In this document: positions 8,779 to 17,153 of the stretch, one piece after another | Layout of the letters: each line of letters begins with the position of its first letter | Position numbering within the stretch: the stretch's first letter is position 1 | Assembly (NCBI GenBank): GCA_965219445.1 | Contig: CBDCNQ010000005.1 | Location: forward strand, 640,001-704,000 | DNA: 64,000 bases | Direction: 5' to 3' | Source: Longimicrobiales bacterium | GTDB lineage: Bacteria; Gemmatimonadota; Gemmatimonadetes; Longimicrobiales; Gaopeijiaceae | Notes under the pieces: model-generated | The model's database searches: none | What the model saw: the letters and a program-made list of their open reading frames with translations, nothing else | Told to the model about the DNA's origin: nothing | Position numbers and translations under genes: made by a program

Positions 8779-9963
8779 ATGCGTAAACGACCGCTTACGG
8801 CTGTCTTCGTGGCACGGGTGACGACGCCGGGACGCTACGGCGACGGGGGGCGCGGCGGACTCGGGCTGTACCTCCGCGTCCACCGAATGAAGTCGGGGCG
8901 CGTCTCCAAGTCCTGGGGCCAGCGCGTTCGAGCGGGAGGGAAGCCCACCAATCTCGGACTGGGCTCGTATCCGGTCGTGACGCTCAAGGAAGCGAGGGAG
9001 GAGGCGCTGGAGAACAGGCGCGCGCTCCATTGGGGCCACGATCCGAGAGCCGCCGGGGTTCCCACCTTCGAGGCGGCCGTCGAGAAGGTGATCGTGATCC
9101 ACTCGCCGACCTGGAAGAGCCCTTCCCGCATCGCCGGACAGTGGCGGCAGACGCTGAGGGACTACGCCCATCCGCGCATCGGCCGAAAGCGCGTGAGCGA
9201 GGTCGCGACGGCCGACGTGCTCGCGATCCTACAGCCCATCTGGTCAAGCAAGCCCGCAGCGGCGAGGGTCGTGCGTCAGCGGATCGGCGCGGTGATGAAG
9301 TGGGCCGTCGCGAAGGGCTACCGGTCGGACAACCCGGCGGGTGACGCCATCGCCGCCGCGCTGCCGCGGAACGGCAACGCCACCCGGCATCACCAGGCGC
9401 TCCCGCATGGCGAGGTGTCGGCGGCGCTGGTCAAGGTCCGCAACTCGGGGTCCCATGCCGGTGTCCGGCTGGCGCTCGAGTTCATGGTCCTGACCGCGAC
9501 TCGCTCGAACGAGGTCCGGGGCGCGACGTGGGACGAGTTCGATCACGATGTCTGGACCATTCCCGCCAGCCGCATGAAGGCGAAGCGCGAGCACCGGGTT
9601 CCCCTGTCGAGGCGGGCCTTGGAGATCCTTGAGGAAGCCCGGAAGCGCCACGACGACGGCGAGATCGTCTTCCGGGGCGCGAAGGGAGGAGGCATCAACG
9701 CCTCGCTGTTCAGCGGCTTGCTCCGGGGTCTCGGCATCGAGGGAACGCCTCACGGGATGAGGTCCTCGTTCCGCGACTGGTGTTCGGAGACGGGCGTGGC
9801 GCGCGAGGTGGCCGAAGCGGCGCTGGCCCATGTCGTGAAGAACAAGGTCGAGGCCGCCTACGCCCGTTCCGACCTGCTGGACCGGAGGCGCGAGGTCATG
9901 GAGGCCTGGGCCGACTATCTCGCTGGCAAGCGTCGAGACCCGGAGGCCGAACCGATCCGTTGA
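8779..9963 (+). CDS. P4-type tyrosine integrase with arm-binding domain
   Basis: N-terminal GRYGDG...GLYLRV...LGLG.YP.V.L.EAR; catalytic R (TATRSNE), K, HGMR, LAH, Y (AAY). Confidence 0.93.
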   Translation: MRKRPLTAVFVARVTTPGRYGDGGRGGLGLYLRVHRMKSGRVSKSWGQRVRAGGKPTNLGLGSYPVVTLKEAREEALENRRALHWGHDPRAAGVPTFEAAVEKVIVIHSPTWKSPSRIAGQWRQTLRDYAHPRIGRKRVSEVATADVLAILQPIWSSKPAAARVVRQRIGAVMKWAVAKGYRSDNPAGDAIAAALPRNGNATRHHQALPHGEVSAALVKVRNSGSHAGVRLALEFMVLTATRSNEVRGATWDEFDHDVWTIPASRMKAKREHRVPLSRRALEILEEARKRHDDGEIVFRGAKGGGINASLFSGLLRGLGIEGTPHGMRSSFRDWCSETGVAREVAEAALAHVVKNKVEAAYARSDLLDRRREVMEAWADYLAGKRRDPEAEPIR

Positions 9964-9992
9964 GGCGCTGGCACATGACCGGTTAGAGGTCA

Positions 9993-10072
9993 TGAGCCAG
10001 CTTACCCTTTGGGGCCACGCTTCGCGGGTCCCCGGCAGGGGCTGGCGAGGGGCTGTGCCCCTTCGATCCCCC
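9993..10072 (-). other. ColE1-like oriT candidate 2
   Basis: Minus strand GGGGGATCGAAGGGGCACAGCCCCTCGCCAG...GGGTAAGCTGGCTCA; same layout as the 5867-5935 site. Confidence 0.4.
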
Positions 10073-10668
10073 AGGGAGGCCCGCGCTCCGCTGCGGCGTG
10101 CGTGTTCGCCCAGCGGCGGTCTGGTTCCGATCGTTGCCGATCGCTAGGAGCGGGTCGGTCGGATGGGACTTTCGGCGTTCGTTCGGATACCCTATCTTCG
10201 CCTCCAAAGAGACGCCCCCGGATAGTTCAGCCTTAACGGGATGCCTTGGTGACGACCGGCGAACCGCTCAGACAACGTAAGGCTCGTGGGGCCTTCTTGT
10301 TCAAGAATGAAAACGCGAAAGACCGGCGGTGGTTTATGAAACACGCGGCGGCCACCGCATTGGAGTCCGATCACGTCCAGACGGTAATAGTGATCGGAAG
10401 GAACATTGATCAAGACGACGCGGCCTATCACACTATCGCTCTATTCGGGGCTCCGGTGGACGCGCCCGATTAGCTTCGGACGTCCATCTGTCCAATGGGC
10501 GATGCCCTACCTCACAGGCCGATGGAGAGGTTAGAAGACAATGTACGAAAAAGGGCAAACGGTATTTGTTGACTCCAACACGATGATCCAATTCGGTAAA
10601 TTGAGGTGGTCCCGGTTTTTTGGACAGGTCGTTAAGGTGGATTCCAGAGCGGAAGAGGAGGCACCGAG

Positions 10669-10956
10669 ATGGCCAGGAAGAGACGGCGGTTCACGGCGGA
10701 GTTCAAGGCACGGGTAGCGCTCGAGGCGCTGCGCGAGCGGGACAGCGTGCAGGCGATCGCGGCGCGGCACGAGCTTCATCCGAACCAGGTGACCACATGG
10801 AAGCGGCAGCTGCTCGAAGGGCTGCCGGAGGTGTTTGCCGGGGGCGCGGGCCGCAAGGCCGCCCTGGAGCACGAGGCGAAGATCCGGGACCTGCACGCCA
10901 AGATCGGGGAGCTCACGGTCGAGCGGGATTTTTTTCGGCGCGGGCTCAAGCGCTGA
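10669..10956 (+). CDS. IS3 OrfA (HTH)
   Basis: MARKRRRFTAEFKARVALEA...W; GGAGG RBS. Confidence 0.9.
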   Translation: MARKRRRFTAEFKARVALEALRERDSVQAIAARHELHPNQVTTWKRQLLEGLPEVFAGGAGRKAALEHEAKIRDLHAKIGELTVERDFFRRGLKR

Positions 10957-11792
10957 GCCGGGCGGAGCGGGGGCGGATGATCGAGCGGGACGGACCGCTG
11001 AGTCTTTCGAGGCAGTGCGCGCTGCTGGGCGTGAGCCGGTCGTCGCAGTACTACCGGCCGAAGGGGGAGAGCGCCGAGGACCTGGCGCTCATGCGGCGCA
11101 TGGACGGGCTCCACACGGCGTATCCGTTCTACGGGAGCCGGCAGCTGATGCGGCATCTGCGCCGCGAGGGCGTTGCCGCGGGCCGGCACCGGATCCGGCG
11201 GCTCATGCGCCTGATGGGGATGGAGGCGACCTACCGGCGGCCGCGCACGAGCGTGGCGAGTCCGGAGCACCGGGTCTTCCCCTATCTGCTGCGGGGCCTC
11301 ACGATCTCGCGGGCGGACCACGTGTGGTGCGCGGACATCACCTATGTCCCGGTGACGCAAGGGTTTTTCTACCTGGTGGCTGTGATGGACTGGGCGACCC
11401 GGCACGTGCTCGCCTGGCGGCTGTCGAACACGATGGACGCGTCGTTCTGCGTCCAGGCGCTGGACGACGCGCTGGGCTGGAGGGCTCCGGAGATCCTCAA
11501 TACGGATCAGGGCTCCCAGTTCACCAGCGAGGCGTTCGCCGACCGGGTGCTGGGTGCGGGCGTGCGCTTCTCGATGGACGGCCGGGGCCGCTTCCTCGAC
11601 AACATCTTCATCGAGCGGCTGTGGCGGTCGCTGAAGTACGAGGCGGTGTACCTCTACGAGCTCCGGGACGGGCCCGACGCCCAACGCATCATCGGCTCGT
11701 GGATCGACTTCTACAACGAAGCACGCCCGCACTCGTCGCTGGGCGGACGGACGCCGGGCGAGGCCTATCGCGAAGGCGCGGAGGTGTGGTGA
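10929..11792 (+). CDS. IS3 OrfB DDE transposase, expected via -1 frameshift
   Basis: T7 run at 10929-10935; WCADITY, NTDQGSQF, DNIFIERLWRSLKYE. Confidence 0.9.
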   Translation, partial: FFSARAQALSRAERGRMIERDGPLSLSRQCALLGVSRSSQYYRPKGESAEDLALMRRMDGLHTAYPFYGSRQLMRHLRREGVAAGRHRIRRLMRLMGMEATYRRPRTSVASPEHRVFPYLLRGLTISRADHVWCADITYVPVTQGFFYLVAVMDWATRHVLAWRLSNTMDASFCVQALDDALGWRAPEILNTDQGSQFTSEAFADRVLGAGVRFSMDGRGRFLDNIFIERLWRSLKYEAVYLYELRDGPDAQRIIGSWIDFYNEARPHSSLGGRTPGEAYREGAEVW

Positions 11793-12805
11793 GGACGATC
11801 CGGCGCGACGCCACCCAACCGGCGCAACGACGCCTGCGATCGTCACGGGATCTACGCGCGGCCCTTCCCTCCGTCTTCCCATCGGGAACCAGTCCCGACG
11901 GGAAGGCGGAGGTTATATTCAAACCGGGCTCGAAGGAGAACACCCAGCCTCAAGCGGGACCCCGAGGGCTTTGGAGACCATCGGAATCCACCTTAAGATC
12001 GCCCTCGGACTGTCCAACGAAGTAGGACCACCTCACGGTACACGACGCAAGAGTGATTGAAAGTGAGTTGATAACGAAGCCAGCAAGCACGTTGTTGATT
12101 CCACATCAAATGAAGAGCATATTGGCCAAAGGAAAAGCCAAAATGGAAGTCGAGATATCATATGACTATCCGATCGGGATGGAGCCGAAAACGAGGCAAT
12201 TTGAGATTGACGTCTACTTGTTTCACAGTGTCGCAGAGGATGGAGAAGAAGGGACGTGTATTGAGTTGATGTCATCAAGGGATTGGTCTAGAGTGATATT
12301 CCTTGGCATATAGGAATTGCAGCTGATCGCAGGGTGTACACACGGTAATCACCTGACACACGGCCTCGCCGACGTCAGGGTCTATACGGCTGGCTTGACC
12401 TCCTTTCTGGTCGGCTTCTTCCGGTTCCGGGCTGAAGACTTGGCCGGGATTCCTGCCTTGAAGACCTCGTAGGGCATCCGCCTCTCAATCCCATGACCGC
12501 GGTGGGGGCTGCAAAGTCCAGCCGGCTCTCCACTCCGCGACTCGGCCACCAGACTTCTTGCGAAAGGGACCGAAGCCGCTCGGAGCCCGAAAACGGGCTC
12601 CACAAAGGGGCTCGTCAGCCCTCTGGGGTGCATTCCACGACCTGAATGCATTCCTGTCGGCCCGATTTTCCGCAGCCTGCTAGAACCCGAGGCCGCGCCG
12701 AGCCCACCGAAAGACTTCCGCTGATCCTCGAGCGCCCAGCCGATTCCGCTGCCTAGAACCATTAGCGGCTCGGCCCATAATCCCGCTCTCGCCCACGCTG
12801 GCGCA

Positions 12806-12991
12806 TCAGCTCCAGCGCCCGCGTAACGTCTCGGCGAGTGTCCTGTAGTCCTGGGCCAAGTGCGTCACTTGCGCGCTGAGCTGTTCGACCTGCCGCCGCA
12901 AGGTCTCGACCTGCGCGGCGTGCTGCCGCTGCGCCTGCTCGTACTGCGCGGACGACGCCCGCAAGGCCTTCGTCAACTGCCGTTCTAACAT
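12806..12991 (-). CDS. MbeD/MobD-like coiled-coil protein
   Basis: LERQLTKAL...QVEQLSAQVTHL, nested in the relaxase 3' part as in ColE1. Confidence 0.65.
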   Translation of the reverse strand: MLERQLTKALRASSAQYEQAQRQHAAQVETLRRQVEQLSAQVTHLAQDYRTLAETLRGRWS

Positions 12992-13010
12992 ACGCGGTCA
13001 TAGAGCTCCT

Positions 13011-13502
13011 TCACTCGTTCGACAGCTTCACGGCCGGCCGAGTGTCCACGGTCCAAGGCGGATAGGCAAGCGCGCCGGCCGGCAGCACCACGAATCGCTC
13101 CCCCTCGTCCCGAAGCGTGATCCTCCAGGTGGTCGCCTCGAGCCGCTCCAGGGTCCGGCGGGCCTCCTCGATCTCCAGGTCGAGGGCGGCCACCGTCTGG
13201 ATCCGGGCTTGGATGCGTGTCGACAGCCATTGCACCGTCGCCCAGCTCCCGCCGCAGATGCCGAGCCAGAGGCTCAGGCCGACGACCAGCGGCCGGAGCC
13301 AGGCCTTGAGCAGGAGCGTGTGCATCCGCCCGGTCGCCACCGCCGTATCGCGTTCGATGGTACGCAGCGCGTTGTTCGCAACGCGCCTGGAGTTCGCGCC
13401 GAGCCGCTCGAGCTCGCTCGTCGTCAGTTCCTCGATCGCCTGGCGTTCGCTCTCCAGCCGTCTCCGCAACCGCGCGGTCAAGTCGTTCGCGTTGGAAGTC
13501 AT
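13011..13502 (-). CDS. MbeB/MobB-like protein (one TM segment), nested in the relaxase gene
   Basis: Alternate frame inside mbeA, coiled coil plus hydrophobic segment; GGAGAG RBS. Confidence 0.65.
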   Translation of the reverse strand: MTSNANDLTARLRRRLESERQAIEELTTSELERLGANSRRVANNALRTIERDTAVATGRMHTLLLKAWLRPLVVGLSLWLGICGGSWATVQWLSTRIQARIQTVAALDLEIEEARRTLERLEATTWRITLRDEGERFVVLPAGALAYPPWTVDTRPAVKLSNE

Positions 13503-14207
13503 GTGCGTACAGCTCTCCTTTCAGCCGCCACCGGTCTCCGGTCCTTGGATCAAGGGCCGTCAGGTAGTCCCTGCCCTGGCGCGGCACCTCCAGGCCCGCC
13601 TCCTGCAAGGCTGCGACGACATCGGCCTGGTTCTGTACGGTGCCGTGCTCGACACGCTGGAGCAGGTAGTCCCGGATCAGGTCGCGGGGGGAGGGCTCGA
13701 GCGCGAGGCCGGCCCGCAGCTGGGCCGCCTCGACATATGCGCGGTGCCCGGGTTGCTGCACCCGTGCCCGCGCCGGGTCATCCGGCCGGCTCCAGCCGTG
13801 TGCGGCGTTGAAGGCGTCGCGCAGCGGACCGAACGTCTTCTGCCAGCCCGGCGGCGCGATGTTGAGGCTCCGGCCGGTCTCGAGGTCGCAATCCGCCAAC
13901 GAAGACCCCGGCCAAGGACCTAGTGACGTCGCCGGCGCGACCGCCAAGCGGCATCAATTGGTCGCGGGAAAAGTATACCCTCTGGCGTTATAGTTCGGCG
14001 CCTTGCCGTCACGAGGGGAGGGGCCCTAGCCTGTGCTGCCGAGCTAGGATCAAAGGCATCATAGGGGCATGGCGACCGCTACCGGTACCGATCAGCAGCG
14101 AAGCAGCCCGAAGACGAAGAGGCGTTCTCCTCCGGGAACGGGTGCGCGTTCATCATTATTCGCGCAAGCAAGCAACCCAACCCGTCCTACCCAAGAGGAG
14201 GATGCCC

Positions 14208-15263
14208 ATGGAGAGGTATATCGGACTCGACGCACACGCGTCGAGCTGCACGCTGGGGATTGTAGGCCCCAGCGGCAAGCGCTTGGGCTCGCAGGTGGTG
14301 GAGACGAACGCGCGGGCGCTGATCGAGGTGCTGCGAGGGATTCCGAGGAACCGGCACTTATGCCTGGAAGAAGGGACGCTGTCGGGGTGGCTGTACGAGG
14401 TGCTGAAGCCGCACGTGGAGGAGCTGACGGTGGCGGGGGTCGGCAAGAGCCGGGGCCCGAAGACCGACAAGCTGGACGCGTTTGCCCTGGCGGAGAAGCT
14501 GCGGATCGGATCACTGGAGACGACGGTCTACAAGAACCGGGGCCAGTTCAGGCGGCTGGGGGAACGGGCGAAGAGCTACGACTTCTTGGTCGGCGACACG
14601 GTGCGGGTGAAGAACCGGCTCAAGAGCGTGCTGCGCTCGAGAGGAGTGGCCTACGGCGCGGGGCGCTCGGTCTACTTAAAGCGCGACCGGGAGGAGTGGT
14701 TGGCCAAGCTGCCGGAAGCGAGCAGGACGACGGCCGGGTTGCTGTACGAGGAGCACGACGCACTCGTGGCATTGAGGGCGAAGGCCGAGAAGGCGTTGCT
14801 GGCGGAAGCACGCAAGCATCGAGAGTGGCATGTGCTGAAGACGTGCCCGGGTCTGGGTCCGATCCGGACGGCGGAGCTCCTGCCGGTGGTGGTGACGCCG
14901 TACCGGTTCCAGAGCCGGAGCAGGTTCTGGGCGTACTGCGGACTGGGCGTCGTGATGCGGAGCTCGTCGGACTGGGTGCGGGGTCCGGGTGGGCGGTGGG
15001 TAAGGGAACCGGTACAGCAGACGCGGGGGCTGAATCGGAACTTCAACCACACGCTGAAGCGTGTGTTCAAGGGCGCAGCGACGACGGTGATCGGTCGGGC
15101 CGAGGACGAGCCCTTGTACCGCCACTACGAGCGACTCCTGGAGGGGGGCACGAAGCCGAATCTGGCGAAGCTGACGATCGCGCGTCAGCTCGCCTCGATC
15201 GTGCTAGCGGTGTGGCGCACGGGCGAAGCGTACGACCCCAAGAGACTGGAAGCGACGGAGTAA
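14208..15263 (+). CDS. IS110 family DEDD recombinase/transposase
   Basis: YIGLDAH, CLEEG, KTDKLDA (DEDD), PGLGP HhH, YCGL...SS; GAGGAGG RBS. Confidence 0.93.
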   Translation: MERYIGLDAHASSCTLGIVGPSGKRLGSQVVETNARALIEVLRGIPRNRHLCLEEGTLSGWLYEVLKPHVEELTVAGVGKSRGPKTDKLDAFALAEKLRIGSLETTVYKNRGQFRRLGERAKSYDFLVGDTVRVKNRLKSVLRSRGVAYGAGRSVYLKRDREEWLAKLPEASRTTAGLLYEEHDALVALRAKAEKALLAEARKHREWHVLKTCPGLGPIRTAELLPVVVTPYRFQSRSRFWAYCGLGVVMRSSSDWVRGPGGRWVREPVQQTRGLNRNFNHTLKRVFKGAATTVIGRAEDEPLYRHYERLLEGGTKPNLAKLTIARQLASIVLAVWRTGEAYDPKRLEATE

Positions 15264-15340
15264 ACCGGCCTGGGATCGGCGAGCGTGGGGTCGAAAGCGG
15301 TCACAACATGGGGTCCGACGAAACGGAAGCGAACCGGTTA

Positions 15341-15475
15341 CAGGGGACAGCATCCATACACACCGTGGGCCGGGGCAGAGAGCCCAAGCCCCCACTCAAA
15401 GGCTATGCACCCCTGGAGAGCCGAACGAAGCGATGGGCCACAGAGTCCCAGATAGAAGGATGGTTCCCGCTCCAG
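15341..15475 (+). ncRNA. Predicted bridge/seek RNA core (target- and donor-binding loops)
   Basis: Internal-loop hairpins carry TACACACC (15357-64), TCAAAGG (15396-402) and ATAGAAGG (15452-59), matching target and donor junction. Confidence 0.75.
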
Positions 15476-15748
15476 AGCGGAGAACGCGACGGCTGTGAAC
15501 GTCTTCCGGACTGCGATGCGGACCCTGCGAGCGCACCCCTCCCCACCCTGAGTCGTCGACCGGGCAATCCAAACCATGCGGACGCCGACGGTCAAAAAAT
15601 GAGCCGACGGCGCGTGGGGAAGGTGCGTCTTGACCGCCAGCCCCATAGAAGGGTGTGTAAAAAAAGAGGCGACGTACCTTTCCGCTAGGTAGTAAGAAGT
15701 TAACCAGCGAATCCCGGGTGAGCGCCCGGGGGAAAGGAACGATGCCTC

Positions 15749-16993
15749 GTGAGGAAGAATATGGTGGGACCCGAGAGTGAGTCCAGCACGCCGACGTGGG
15801 AGTGCTTGGAAGCGCTGGTTCGTGAGAAGGCCCAGGAGATGGTCCAGCGGATTCTGGAGGAGGAAGTGACGGAGTTGCTCGGCCGGGAGAAGTCGGAGCG
15901 GAAGACGGTCGTAGACCCGGCGCCAGGCTACCGCAACGGCTACGGCAAGGCTCGGCGGCTGGCGATGAGCTCGGGCACGATCATGCTCCGACGGCCCCGG
16001 GTTCGAGGCATTGAGGAGCGGTTCGAGAGTCGGGTGTTGCCGTTGTTCGCACGACGGACGAAGGAGGTGGGTGCTCTGCTTCCGGAGCTGTATCTGCACG
16101 GGCTGGCGGAGGGAGACTTCGAGCTGGCGATGCGGGGCCTGCTGGGCGAGGGGGCCCCGTTGTCGAAGTCTTCGATTTGGCGGCTGCGGGCGGGATGGAC
16201 AAGGAAATTCGAGGAATGGTCGAAGCGCTCGCTGGCCGACCGTGAGGTCGTCTACGTCTGGGCGGACGGGATCTACGTGAAGGCGGGGCTCGAGCGGGAC
16301 AAGGCAGCGCTGCTGGTGGTTCTCGGTGCGATGCGAGATGGTACGAAGGAGGTGTTGGCCCTGAGATCGGGCTACCGAGAGTCGGTCGAGTCCTGGTCCG
16401 AGGTGTTGCGGGATCTGAAGGCACGCGGCATCGAGGCGCCCCGGCTTTTGATGGCGGACGGCAACGCGGCGATCTGGGGCGCAGTACGGCAGGTATGGCC
16501 TGAGGCGGGCGAGCAACGGTGCTGGAACCACAAGATGAGGAACGTGCTGGACCGGCTGCCTCAGCGGGAGCAGAGCGAGGCGAAGGACCTTCTCAGGACC
16601 GTGGTCTACGCACCGAGGCGGTCCGAGGCGCTGAAGGCCCGTGAGGCGTTCGCCAGGCGCTACAGACCGTGGTATCCGAAGGCGGTGGATGTACTCGAGG
16701 ACGACTGGGAGCGGATGGTGGCGTTCTACGACTTCCCCGAGGACCACTGGAAGCATCTACGCACGACGAACGTGGTCGAGAGCCCCTTTGCCGCAGTACG
16801 GCTCAGGACAACGGCGGCGAAGCGCTTCAAGCGGGTCGAGAGCGCTACGGCGCTGATCTGGAAGCTGCTCTTGGTGGCGGAGAAGCGCTTCAGAAGGCTC
16901 GACGCTCCTCACCTCCTCAAGGACGTATTTGAAGGAAGAAAGTTCGAAGACGGAAAGCCCGTCTCAACCCAACAGCGGAAAAACGCCGCCTGA
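15749..16993 (+). CDS. IS256 family transposase
   Basis: YRNGY, YVWADGIY, MADGN, QRCWNHK, RTTNVVES. Confidence 0.95.
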   Translation: MRKNMVGPESESSTPTWECLEALVREKAQEMVQRILEEEVTELLGREKSERKTVVDPAPGYRNGYGKARRLAMSSGTIMLRRPRVRGIEERFESRVLPLFARRTKEVGALLPELYLHGLAEGDFELAMRGLLGEGAPLSKSSIWRLRAGWTRKFEEWSKRSLADREVVYVWADGIYVKAGLERDKAALLVVLGAMRDGTKEVLALRSGYRESVESWSEVLRDLKARGIEAPRLLMADGNAAIWGAVRQVWPEAGEQRCWNHKMRNVLDRLPQREQSEAKDLLRTVVYAPRRSEALKAREAFARRYRPWYPKAVDVLEDDWERMVAFYDFPEDHWKHLRTTNVVESPFAAVRLRTTAAKRFKRVESATALIWKLLLVAEKRFRRLDAPHLLKDVFEGRKFEDGKPVSTQQRKNAA

Positions 16994-17153
16994 AACATTT
17001 ACACACCTATTGACCCAACCTCTTTCTCGTCATAGATGAAATCTCGTGACGAGCTGTGTCTCATGCCATGAAAAAAAACGGTGCCTGTCGGTCACGGCGA
17101 GCGCTCCTCCATTCCTCGTGATCTGCCTCGAAGGCAGCGGCGATCACGAGCGC

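Follow-up and report, generated by a model that had tools for sequence, protein, structure and literature searches.

Does an insertion sequence (IS) of the IS110 family that lies within the left inverted repeat (IRL) of an IS256-family element occupy that site by chance, or is it guided there, and at what cost to its host? The question is raised by a composite in a 64,000-nucleotide stretch of a Longimicrobiales bacterium genome (the window). We consider it very likely that the IS110 is directed to the position after bp 16 of IS256 left repeats by a predicted bridge RNA, located 3' of its recombinase gene, that pairs with both halves of the site. The position and orientation of the insertions, their copy numbers, the guide-target matches and the co-variation in relatives are all observed.

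The features of the composite are collected in Table 1. As a first-pass annotation of the window had stated, AAGG stands at both IS110 boundaries (14053-14056 and 15649-15652), and removal of the IS110 rebuilds GAGCTAGGATCAAAGGGTGTGTAA, which has 19/24 identity to the right inverted repeat (IRR) at 16999-17022. The junctions of relatives led us to reject a 4-bp AAGG core, since they read TAGG or TGGG on the left and AAGG on the right; the conserved core is therefore only GG (at most AGG). The rebuilt site is the same with either core. The two flanks of the IS256 copy in the window do not form a target duplication with each other; the left one is paired with the right flank at C4:200648 and the right one with the left flank at C4:326794 (C2, C4 and C5 are contigs of G000, the source genome of the window).

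Table 1. Features of the nested IS256 and IS110 elements, in window coordinates.
Feature	Coordinates	Strand	Remark
IS256 left-flank 8-mer	14033-14040	+	Duplicate at right end of another IS256 copy (C4:200648/200649)
IS256 IRL bp 1-16, outer tip	14041-14056	+	Left half of IS110 target: TCAAA + GG core 14055-14056
TAGGAT, predicted -10 box of IS256 circle-junction promoter	14045-14050	+	Would lie 17 bp from TTGACC at 17010, given a 6-bp spacer
IS110-family element, 1596 bp including one GG core (15651-15652)	14057-15652	+	Junction comparison with relatives
IS110 left end	14057-14074	+	CATCAT = right donor half and predicted -10 of IS110 circle promoter
IS110 imperfect subterminal repeat, left copy	14064-14074	+	
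IS110 DEDD recombinase, 351 aa	14208-15263	+	PF01548, PF02371
Predicted bridge RNA target-binding loop	15341-15414	+	Both target guides inside
Right-target guide TACACACC	15357-15364	+	Complement of G/GTGTGTA (slash, junction)
Left-target guide ACTCAAAGG	15394-15402	+	
Predicted bridge RNA donor-binding loop	15417-15466	+	GATG + ATAGAAGG; right-end co-variation in L015
Donor-loop GATG	15432-15435	+	Complement of CATC
Donor-loop ATAGAAGG	15452-15459	+	Equals right end of IS110
IS110 right end	15630-15652	+	TTGACC (-35, 17 bp to CATCAT in predicted circle); left donor half ATAGAA + GG core
IS110 imperfect subterminal repeat, right copy	15635-15644	+	
IS256 left repeat from bp 17 on, right target half	15653-15661	+	TGTAAA subterminal motif 15656-15661
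IS256 (Mutator) DDE transposase, 414 aa, intact	15749-16993	+	NF033543
IS256 IRR, uninterrupted	16999-17022	+	
IS256 right-flank 8-mer	17023-17030	+	Duplicate at left end of copy C4:326794

Twenty-four IS110 left ends were found in G000, and 23 of them follow bp 16 of an IS256 IRL, at a single nucleotide and in a single orientation, a pattern that chance does not explain. The exception, at C2:336722, lies outside IS256 at a site that fits all 9 nt of the left guide. The genome has 28 IRL tips (23 filled, five empty), and the 29 right repeats detected in it are all uninterrupted. Two proposals of the first-pass annotation, that IS256 left ends are a multicopy landing site and that the right repeat is incompatible with the guide, agree with these counts and with the filled right junctions seen in seven (G000 among them) of 314 genomes from this family; the support it had asked for, other IS110 copies at this nucleotide, is given by every copy in G000 but C2:336722. 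The expectation that intact IS256 copies begin with the rebuilt IRL was confirmed in the relatives G045, G006 and G007 but not in G000, where the exact 14-nt rebuilt target has no occurrence, the five uninterrupted IRLs included; these read ATCAGAAGG, ATCGAAGG, ATCAAGG, ATCAGAGG and AAAGGGTGAGT. Two of the five have their own 8-bp duplication and three lack it. In an alignment of 22 full-length copies, the IS110s are 98-100% identical and combine two or more haplotypes as mosaics. Fifteen IS256 bodies are identical, 12 of them filled, and IS110s of the same near-identity also occupy IS256 subtypes that share no more than 80% and 89% identity with that of the window. No IS256 that starts with a borrowed IS110 right end, as would be expected from attack at a fixed distance off the right junction, was found among 26 inner ends in G000.

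Such uniformity might arise if a single ancient insertion had been multiplied by repeat collapse or by mis-joining during assembly. Only 7 of the 19 filled copies with both ends retain their own duplication, with halves swapped in cycles, which indicates that recombination between copies or mis-joined repeats, indistinguishable here, are common; moreover, the mosaic IS110 haplotypes cluster by contig. However, six further assemblies of the family have the same junction, as does an unrelated contig from a metagenome (L225), and orthologous empty sites exist. Four sequencing runs (X1, X5, X15 and X16, of 24 listed) were examined, all as contigs. Run X1 contains both IS110 haplotypes and has an IS110-to-flank depth ratio of ~23 (154 vs. 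6.6; summed contig depth, and thus a rough guide only). An artefact of this kind is largely refuted as an account of the targeting itself, and we regard it as highly improbable. As to the clustering, a 6-bp deletion is present in eight of the nine full-length IS110 copies on C2 and in one of the six on C5; local hopping, gene conversion and strain mixture are alternative origins.

The loci closest to that in the window were from metagenome-assembled genomes labelled Longimicrobiales. The rebuilt 24-mer, or its GAGGT form, was uninterrupted in G045 (3/3), G006 (1/1) and also G007, and of the 44 uninterrupted copies in G082, 42 had the unaltered core, which also occurs in G084, G311, G265 and others. 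Two orthologous pairs were available: L163 of G006 is empty and L004 filled, and L165 of G007 is empty where C5:1030810 of G000 is filled. In G277, the IS110 at L291 lies outside IS256, beside an 8-nt match to its right guide, and is identical to the IRL-borne L290. These pairs, together with an IS110 that is identical inside and outside IS256, indicate that the IS110 enters resident IS256 copies on its own. Some IS110s are hosted by short IS256 remnants (L005, L001, L004); in L005, no more than 34 bp of the left part come before a right-repeat-like tip.

The region at 15341-15466 is predicted to fold as two stem/internal-loop/stem modules, an arrangement conserved in an alignment of 14 sequences. 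The first loop contains, in order, TACACACC, the complement of the right target half, and ACTCAAAGG, of which 7 of 9 nt match the IRL. In the second loop, GATG and ATAGAAGG fit the joined ends of the element; in L015, the donor guide and the right end are altered together. Guide-flank co-variation, across relatives with other targets, was tested with the rows, from 16 hand-picked and 80 metagenome loci, in which both motif and junction were found; four registers were allowed on the right, and the rearranged right side of L009 was left out. Left guides matched their flanks at 96 of 126 positions (shuffle mean 68.5; 18 distinct guides) and right guides at 144 of 175 (88.8 expected; 25 guides), and none of 20,000 shuffles reached either score. 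The sequence TTGAC(C/A/T)-17-CAT(C/T)AT, which would be joined in a circular form, is conserved in 13 of the 13 elements shown. The linear IS110 gave no hits in a promoter scan, which would be expected of promoters that arise only at junctions. Partial tandem duplications of the 3' part of the IS110, bridge RNA included and joined at the right end, occur at C5:1611138-1613245, L005 and L190.

Several observations weigh against guidance by this RNA. The single-sequence fold is weak (z = -0.87), and both-side changes affect only 3 of 34 base pairs in the 14-sequence alignment. The permuted rows are related, so the p-values are overstated. The guides fit poorly in some relatives (L027, L029, L266), and L224 has the IS256 guide pair beside a left flank of the GGATAGG type (possibly a guide change after insertion). 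Intact guide-matching IS110s coexist with unaltered empty IRLs in G082 (42/44), G349 (5/5) and G007 (5/8). No IS110 circle joint was listed in the four runs, and two RNA runs cover IS256 but not IS110; as contigs, neither can show absence.

Guided targeting is also indicated by its apparent recurrence. In L225, an IS110 with 69% amino-acid identity to that of the window occupies the same IRL base of an IS256 with 73% identity, and its guides are TACACACC and CATCAAAGG. A tree of 39 proteins nests L225 and L224 among relatives that target GGATAGG sites, and a single clade for all seven rows with IS256 guides was rejected (p-AU 1e-68; groups were named beforehand, and the root is a midpoint only). 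The RNA scaffold of both is of their own clade's type, including part of the stem between the guides, which makes transfer of a single block from the window's clade unlikely. The shared guides would thus reflect either independent reprogramming or short-patch exchange, and it is likely that two separate IS110 lineages acquired the IS256-IRL target independently. L009, a 95%-identical IS110 in G084, has the guide ATCACTAGG; its left junction is an IS256 right repeat, and its right side is rearranged. Shared flanks suggest that G082 (L006), G000 (C2:603203) and L009 hold one and the same old IS256 copy, with the insertion in the left repeat in the first two and in the right repeat in the third. 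Most sister IS110s (L011, L013, L014, L210-L289) target GGATAGG followed by an AAnTYCAA-like stretch, with unrelated flanks; inspection by eye of the flanks and downstream open reading frame positions at 25 loci found no shared repeat or IS256 gene at sites of this type. In G220, a 77%-identical IS110 (L183, L187, L190) targets several loci that share a longer motif, which may represent another repeat family.

The IS110 protein was recognized in profile searches by PF01548 (39.7 bits; cut-off 29) and PF02371 (32.4 bits; cut-off 21.3). Residues D8, E54/E55, D87, D90 and S252/S253 (in the alignment of relatives, the count starts at an ATG two codons earlier) are kept in at least 95% of 40 aligned relatives. 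The protein thus has the DEDD RuvC domain and the Transposase_20 domain with catalytic serine that define the IS110 family broadly; the element also makes no duplication, the comparison of empty and filled sites revealing one extra GG core only, and by fold, match and co-variation its non-coding RNA is predicted to fit target and donor. The NF033542 score was 112, under the cut-off of 140, which points to a divergent IS110 clade; the nearest plasmid records have <28% identity, and no solved IS110 structure was matched by sequence at E 0.001. As in the IS1111 group, the longer non-coding region lies downstream of the transposase gene (~390 bp vs. ~150 bp upstream), and the guide with top-strand complementarity (15357-15364) is 5' of that with the bottom-strand match (15394-15402), the order described for IS1111-type elements in PMC11187229. 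However, that group has near-perfect subterminal repeats of 11-13 bp with 7-bp and 3-bp extensions; the repeat here is 10-11 bp with a one-base gap, the right extension is 6 bp plus the core, and relatives retain only GGGGC or less. The C-terminal motif GL-P----S(t)G is also absent, the protein reading GLGVVMRSSSD with no P and no SG or TG. The guide-RNA arrangement therefore appears IS1111-like, yet the repeats and the C-terminal motif depart from the definition of the IS1111 group. A one-base deletion at window position 15236 and its equivalents, near the end of the IS110 gene, is common to five G000 copies; four of these were translated, yielding 415-429 aa that extend into the RNA region, and 410-aa forms are found in G349. 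The IS256 transposase scored 295 bits with NF033543 (cut-off 150) and matches PDB 6xg8 at E 4e-34. It is a Mutator-type DDE enzyme with C/DxxH (D173, D237, C258-H261, E344), and the copies of the element have repeats with TGTAAA and 8-9-bp duplications, as expected for the IS256 family, although the duplication of the window copy is swapped with other copies.

By analogy with IS621 (PMC11208160, PMC11208158), the IS110 would form a circle with the junction promoter TTGACC-17-CATCAT, and guide pairing would be followed by top-strand exchange 3' of the core. Resident IS256 copies would be filled one at a time. Since IS256 continually makes new identical left ends, it would provide renewable landing sites in DNA that is already disrupted. 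An IS256 circle with a 6-bp spacer would create TTGACC-17-TAGGAT, with the IS110 directly downstream of the -10 box in the sense orientation. Excision of IS621 is reported to require read-through transcription (PMC13626964), and it is a matter of speculation that such a requirement could favor the left repeat.

For the host, ISCth4, an IS256-family element, offers a comparison. Its transposase is reported to bind bp 1-12 and 14-25, and a junction with only left-repeat bp 1-14 still integrates (PMC7780238). Insertion of the IS110 splits the site equivalent to bp 14-25 and leaves bp 1-16 intact; a filled IS256 is probably impaired, not dead. Full immobilization with rescue by precise excision, the proposal of the first-pass annotation and the situation described for IS4321/IS5075 in Tn21 repeats, is unlikely. 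The site that is cut corresponds to the main binding site in ISCth4 (PMC7780238), post-excision junctions are reported for IS621 (PMC13626964), and IS4321 reportedly reduces the mobility of Tn21, which may be regained upon excision (PMC12189595); on the other hand, none of the five G000 empties is an exactly restored site, the truncated ISCth4 end can still function, and CazIS110-1 is reported to copy out with the original copy retained (10.1101/2025.10.25.684509). Published accounts thus conflict on restoration of the empty site by IS110s (PMC13626964 vs. 10.1101/2025.10.25.684509).

Slightly less doubtful, although we still lean against it, is movement of the whole composite by the IS256 transposase, with the IRR as donor and the bp 1-16 tip as recipient, which would add to targeting and not replace it. 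The IS256 junction promoter of such a circle would fire into the IS110. The recipient end of ISCth4 is weakly bound, and integration still occurs with only bp 1-14 of the left repeat (PMC7780238), 12 of the 15 identical IS256 bodies in G000 are filled, and the intact IS110s of G082 and G349 have been slow to fill available sites. A derived right junction, AAGA, is common to all five filled G083 copies, and three G277 copies share a variant IRL tip and a variant guide, but both also fit independent insertion, and AAGA would also be expected from a donor-core variant under the top-strand cut position of IS621 (PMC11208158). Furthermore, identical IS256 bodies with intact duplications bear different IS110 haplotypes, and no clear linkage of IS110 and IS256 variants was found in G083, where recombination (both are mosaics) blurs the test.

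Under guided targeting, a changed core probably makes a poorer target of an uninterrupted copy, and such copies probably remain where the IS110 has spread most. We treat as tentative, and somewhat improbable, the further idea that these are escape alleles under selection, i.e. that IRL cores off the guide stay mobile and expand where IS110 is active, with guides drifting after them. Uninterrupted copies are altered in G000 (5/5), G083 (10/10) and G081 (1/1); in G083, eight have ATCAAATG, and most of these combine intact genes with a duplication of their own; two others have that genome's right-repeat core. Altered target forms include ATCAAATG, ATCAATAA, ATCAGAGG and ATCAAAAG. IRL variation peaks at bp 13-16 (7 non-consensus bases at 4 positions in 14 alleles, the G220 rows coming from a pattern that fixes bp 8-11, vs. 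1 in 4 right-repeat alleles), and core pairing is reported to matter in IS621 (PMC11208160). Unaltered empties number 11 of 31 in six genomes with at least two filled copies and 69 of 113 in thirteen others (copy-level p = 0.014), but 2/6 vs. 8/13 with genomes as units (p = 0.35); the tallies were entered by hand, copies are non-independent, and several counts come from patterns that fix flanking bases. A prospective test failed, as G349 has six filled copies and 5/5 unaltered empties. In G082, 42 of 44 are unaltered beside one intact IS110, and in G220, 37 of 40 cores are altered where no IS256-targeting IS110 was found and the IS110 relatives use another site. The three G000 empties that lack their own duplication may be junction artefacts, and one "altered" form is the filled left junction of a decayed G349 copy (L365). 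Reads give the five altered G000 alleles no confirmation: X1, X5 and X15 contain unaltered empty IRLs as loose contig ends that are not assignable to those five loci. A simple filter, in which IS110 fills matching IRLs and leaves natural variants, explains G000 without selection. The stronger statement that all empties are altered where IS110 is common fails in G349 and is weak in G007 (5/8 unaltered) and G277 (1/2 unaltered).

These elements might be joined in an arms race readable base by base, with at least two reprogrammings onto the same IRL nucleotide, a parasite that rides its host, IS256 copies that escape and guides that follow; as a whole this is more unlikely than any of the single processes just weighed. 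In such a race, the chosen site would leave a usable IRL tip and put the IS110 under the host's junction promoter. IS256 would escape by changes in bp 13-16 or by copying of the right-repeat core into the left repeat, and the guides that follow would be those of the right-repeat variant L009 and of G277, with its tip variants.

To the left of the composite, the window contains a mobile island (8779-13947) with a tyrosine integrase (8779-9963), an open reading frame pair that we take to be IS3-like (10669-11792), and a weak MbeA-type relaxase match (12985-13947); seven further close copies of the segment 13500-13890 occur in the genome. In one filled IRL, a 1.9-kb repeat (C4:1169767-1171666) three bases right of the IS110 junction forms a third nesting layer. 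It has 13 copies genome-wide, the other 12 in unrelated sites, mostly after GTG, and its ends resemble those of a group II intron.

Targeting of another element's ends is already known. The first-pass annotation's statement that IS4321/IS5075, of the IS1111 group, target the terminal repeats of Tn21-family elements agrees with PMC12189595 and PMC3589745, in which impaired mobility is also described. There, too, an IS110-superfamily element occupies one fixed position in another element's terminal repeat, but the host is of the Tn3 family; here it is a copy-out/paste-in IS256, targeted by this guide in the left repeat only, and the long perfect subterminal repeats of IS4321/IS5075 are absent from the IS110 of the window. 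ISEc11, ISKpn4 and ISPa11, IS1111-type elements with a seekRNA (PMC11187229), share the long non-coding region 3' of the transposase gene, the guide order and a predicted circle-junction promoter. They differ in that the subterminal repeat here is imperfect, the right extension is 6 bp plus core vs. 3 bp, the C-terminal motif is GLGVVMRSS vs. GL-P----S(t)G, and they are described as entering short linear sites, attC or REP, instead of the ends of an IS256. IS621 and the bridge recombinases (PMC11208160, PMC11208158) likewise combine DEDD and serine recombinase features, separate target and donor loops and a 2-nt shared core; in the window, however, the RNA lies in the right end, the guide order is reversed, and the core is GG vs. 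CT. ISEc21, of the IS110 group (PMC11187229), provides a precedent, as its RNA directs it to a stretch that other insertion sequences conserve, but this RNA is upstream and the stretch lies within the transposase coding region of IS3-family elements, at the second catalytic D; the IS110 of the window hits a terminal repeat and leaves the transposase gene intact. The host IS256 resembles ISCth4 (PMC7780238; PDB 6xg8) in its Mutator transposase, ~24-bp repeats with TGTAAA, 8-9-bp duplications and predicted junction promoter, and differs in having the left repeat split after bp 16 in 23 of 28 G000 copies. Literature searches of titles and abstract openings did not find the pairing of an IS110 with an IS256 end, and IS256 is mentioned zero times in the main texts of PMC11187229, PMC11208160 and 10.64898/2026.08.14.744561, the supplements of which may list such targets. 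It is well supported that the novelty lies in the IS256 left-repeat target, with unusual comparative depth.

The locus is a clear example from nature of an insertion sequence that colonizes the ends of another by means of an RNA guide; filled and empty sites number in the dozens, and the guide has several variants. This abundance makes testable the natural reprogramming of guides, the distinction between parasites that suppress and parasites that ride their hosts, and host escape by mutation. It offers a probable instance of natural bridge-RNA reprogramming, two lineages having reached the same two guides, and a divergent clade of recombinases with many natural guide-target pairs.

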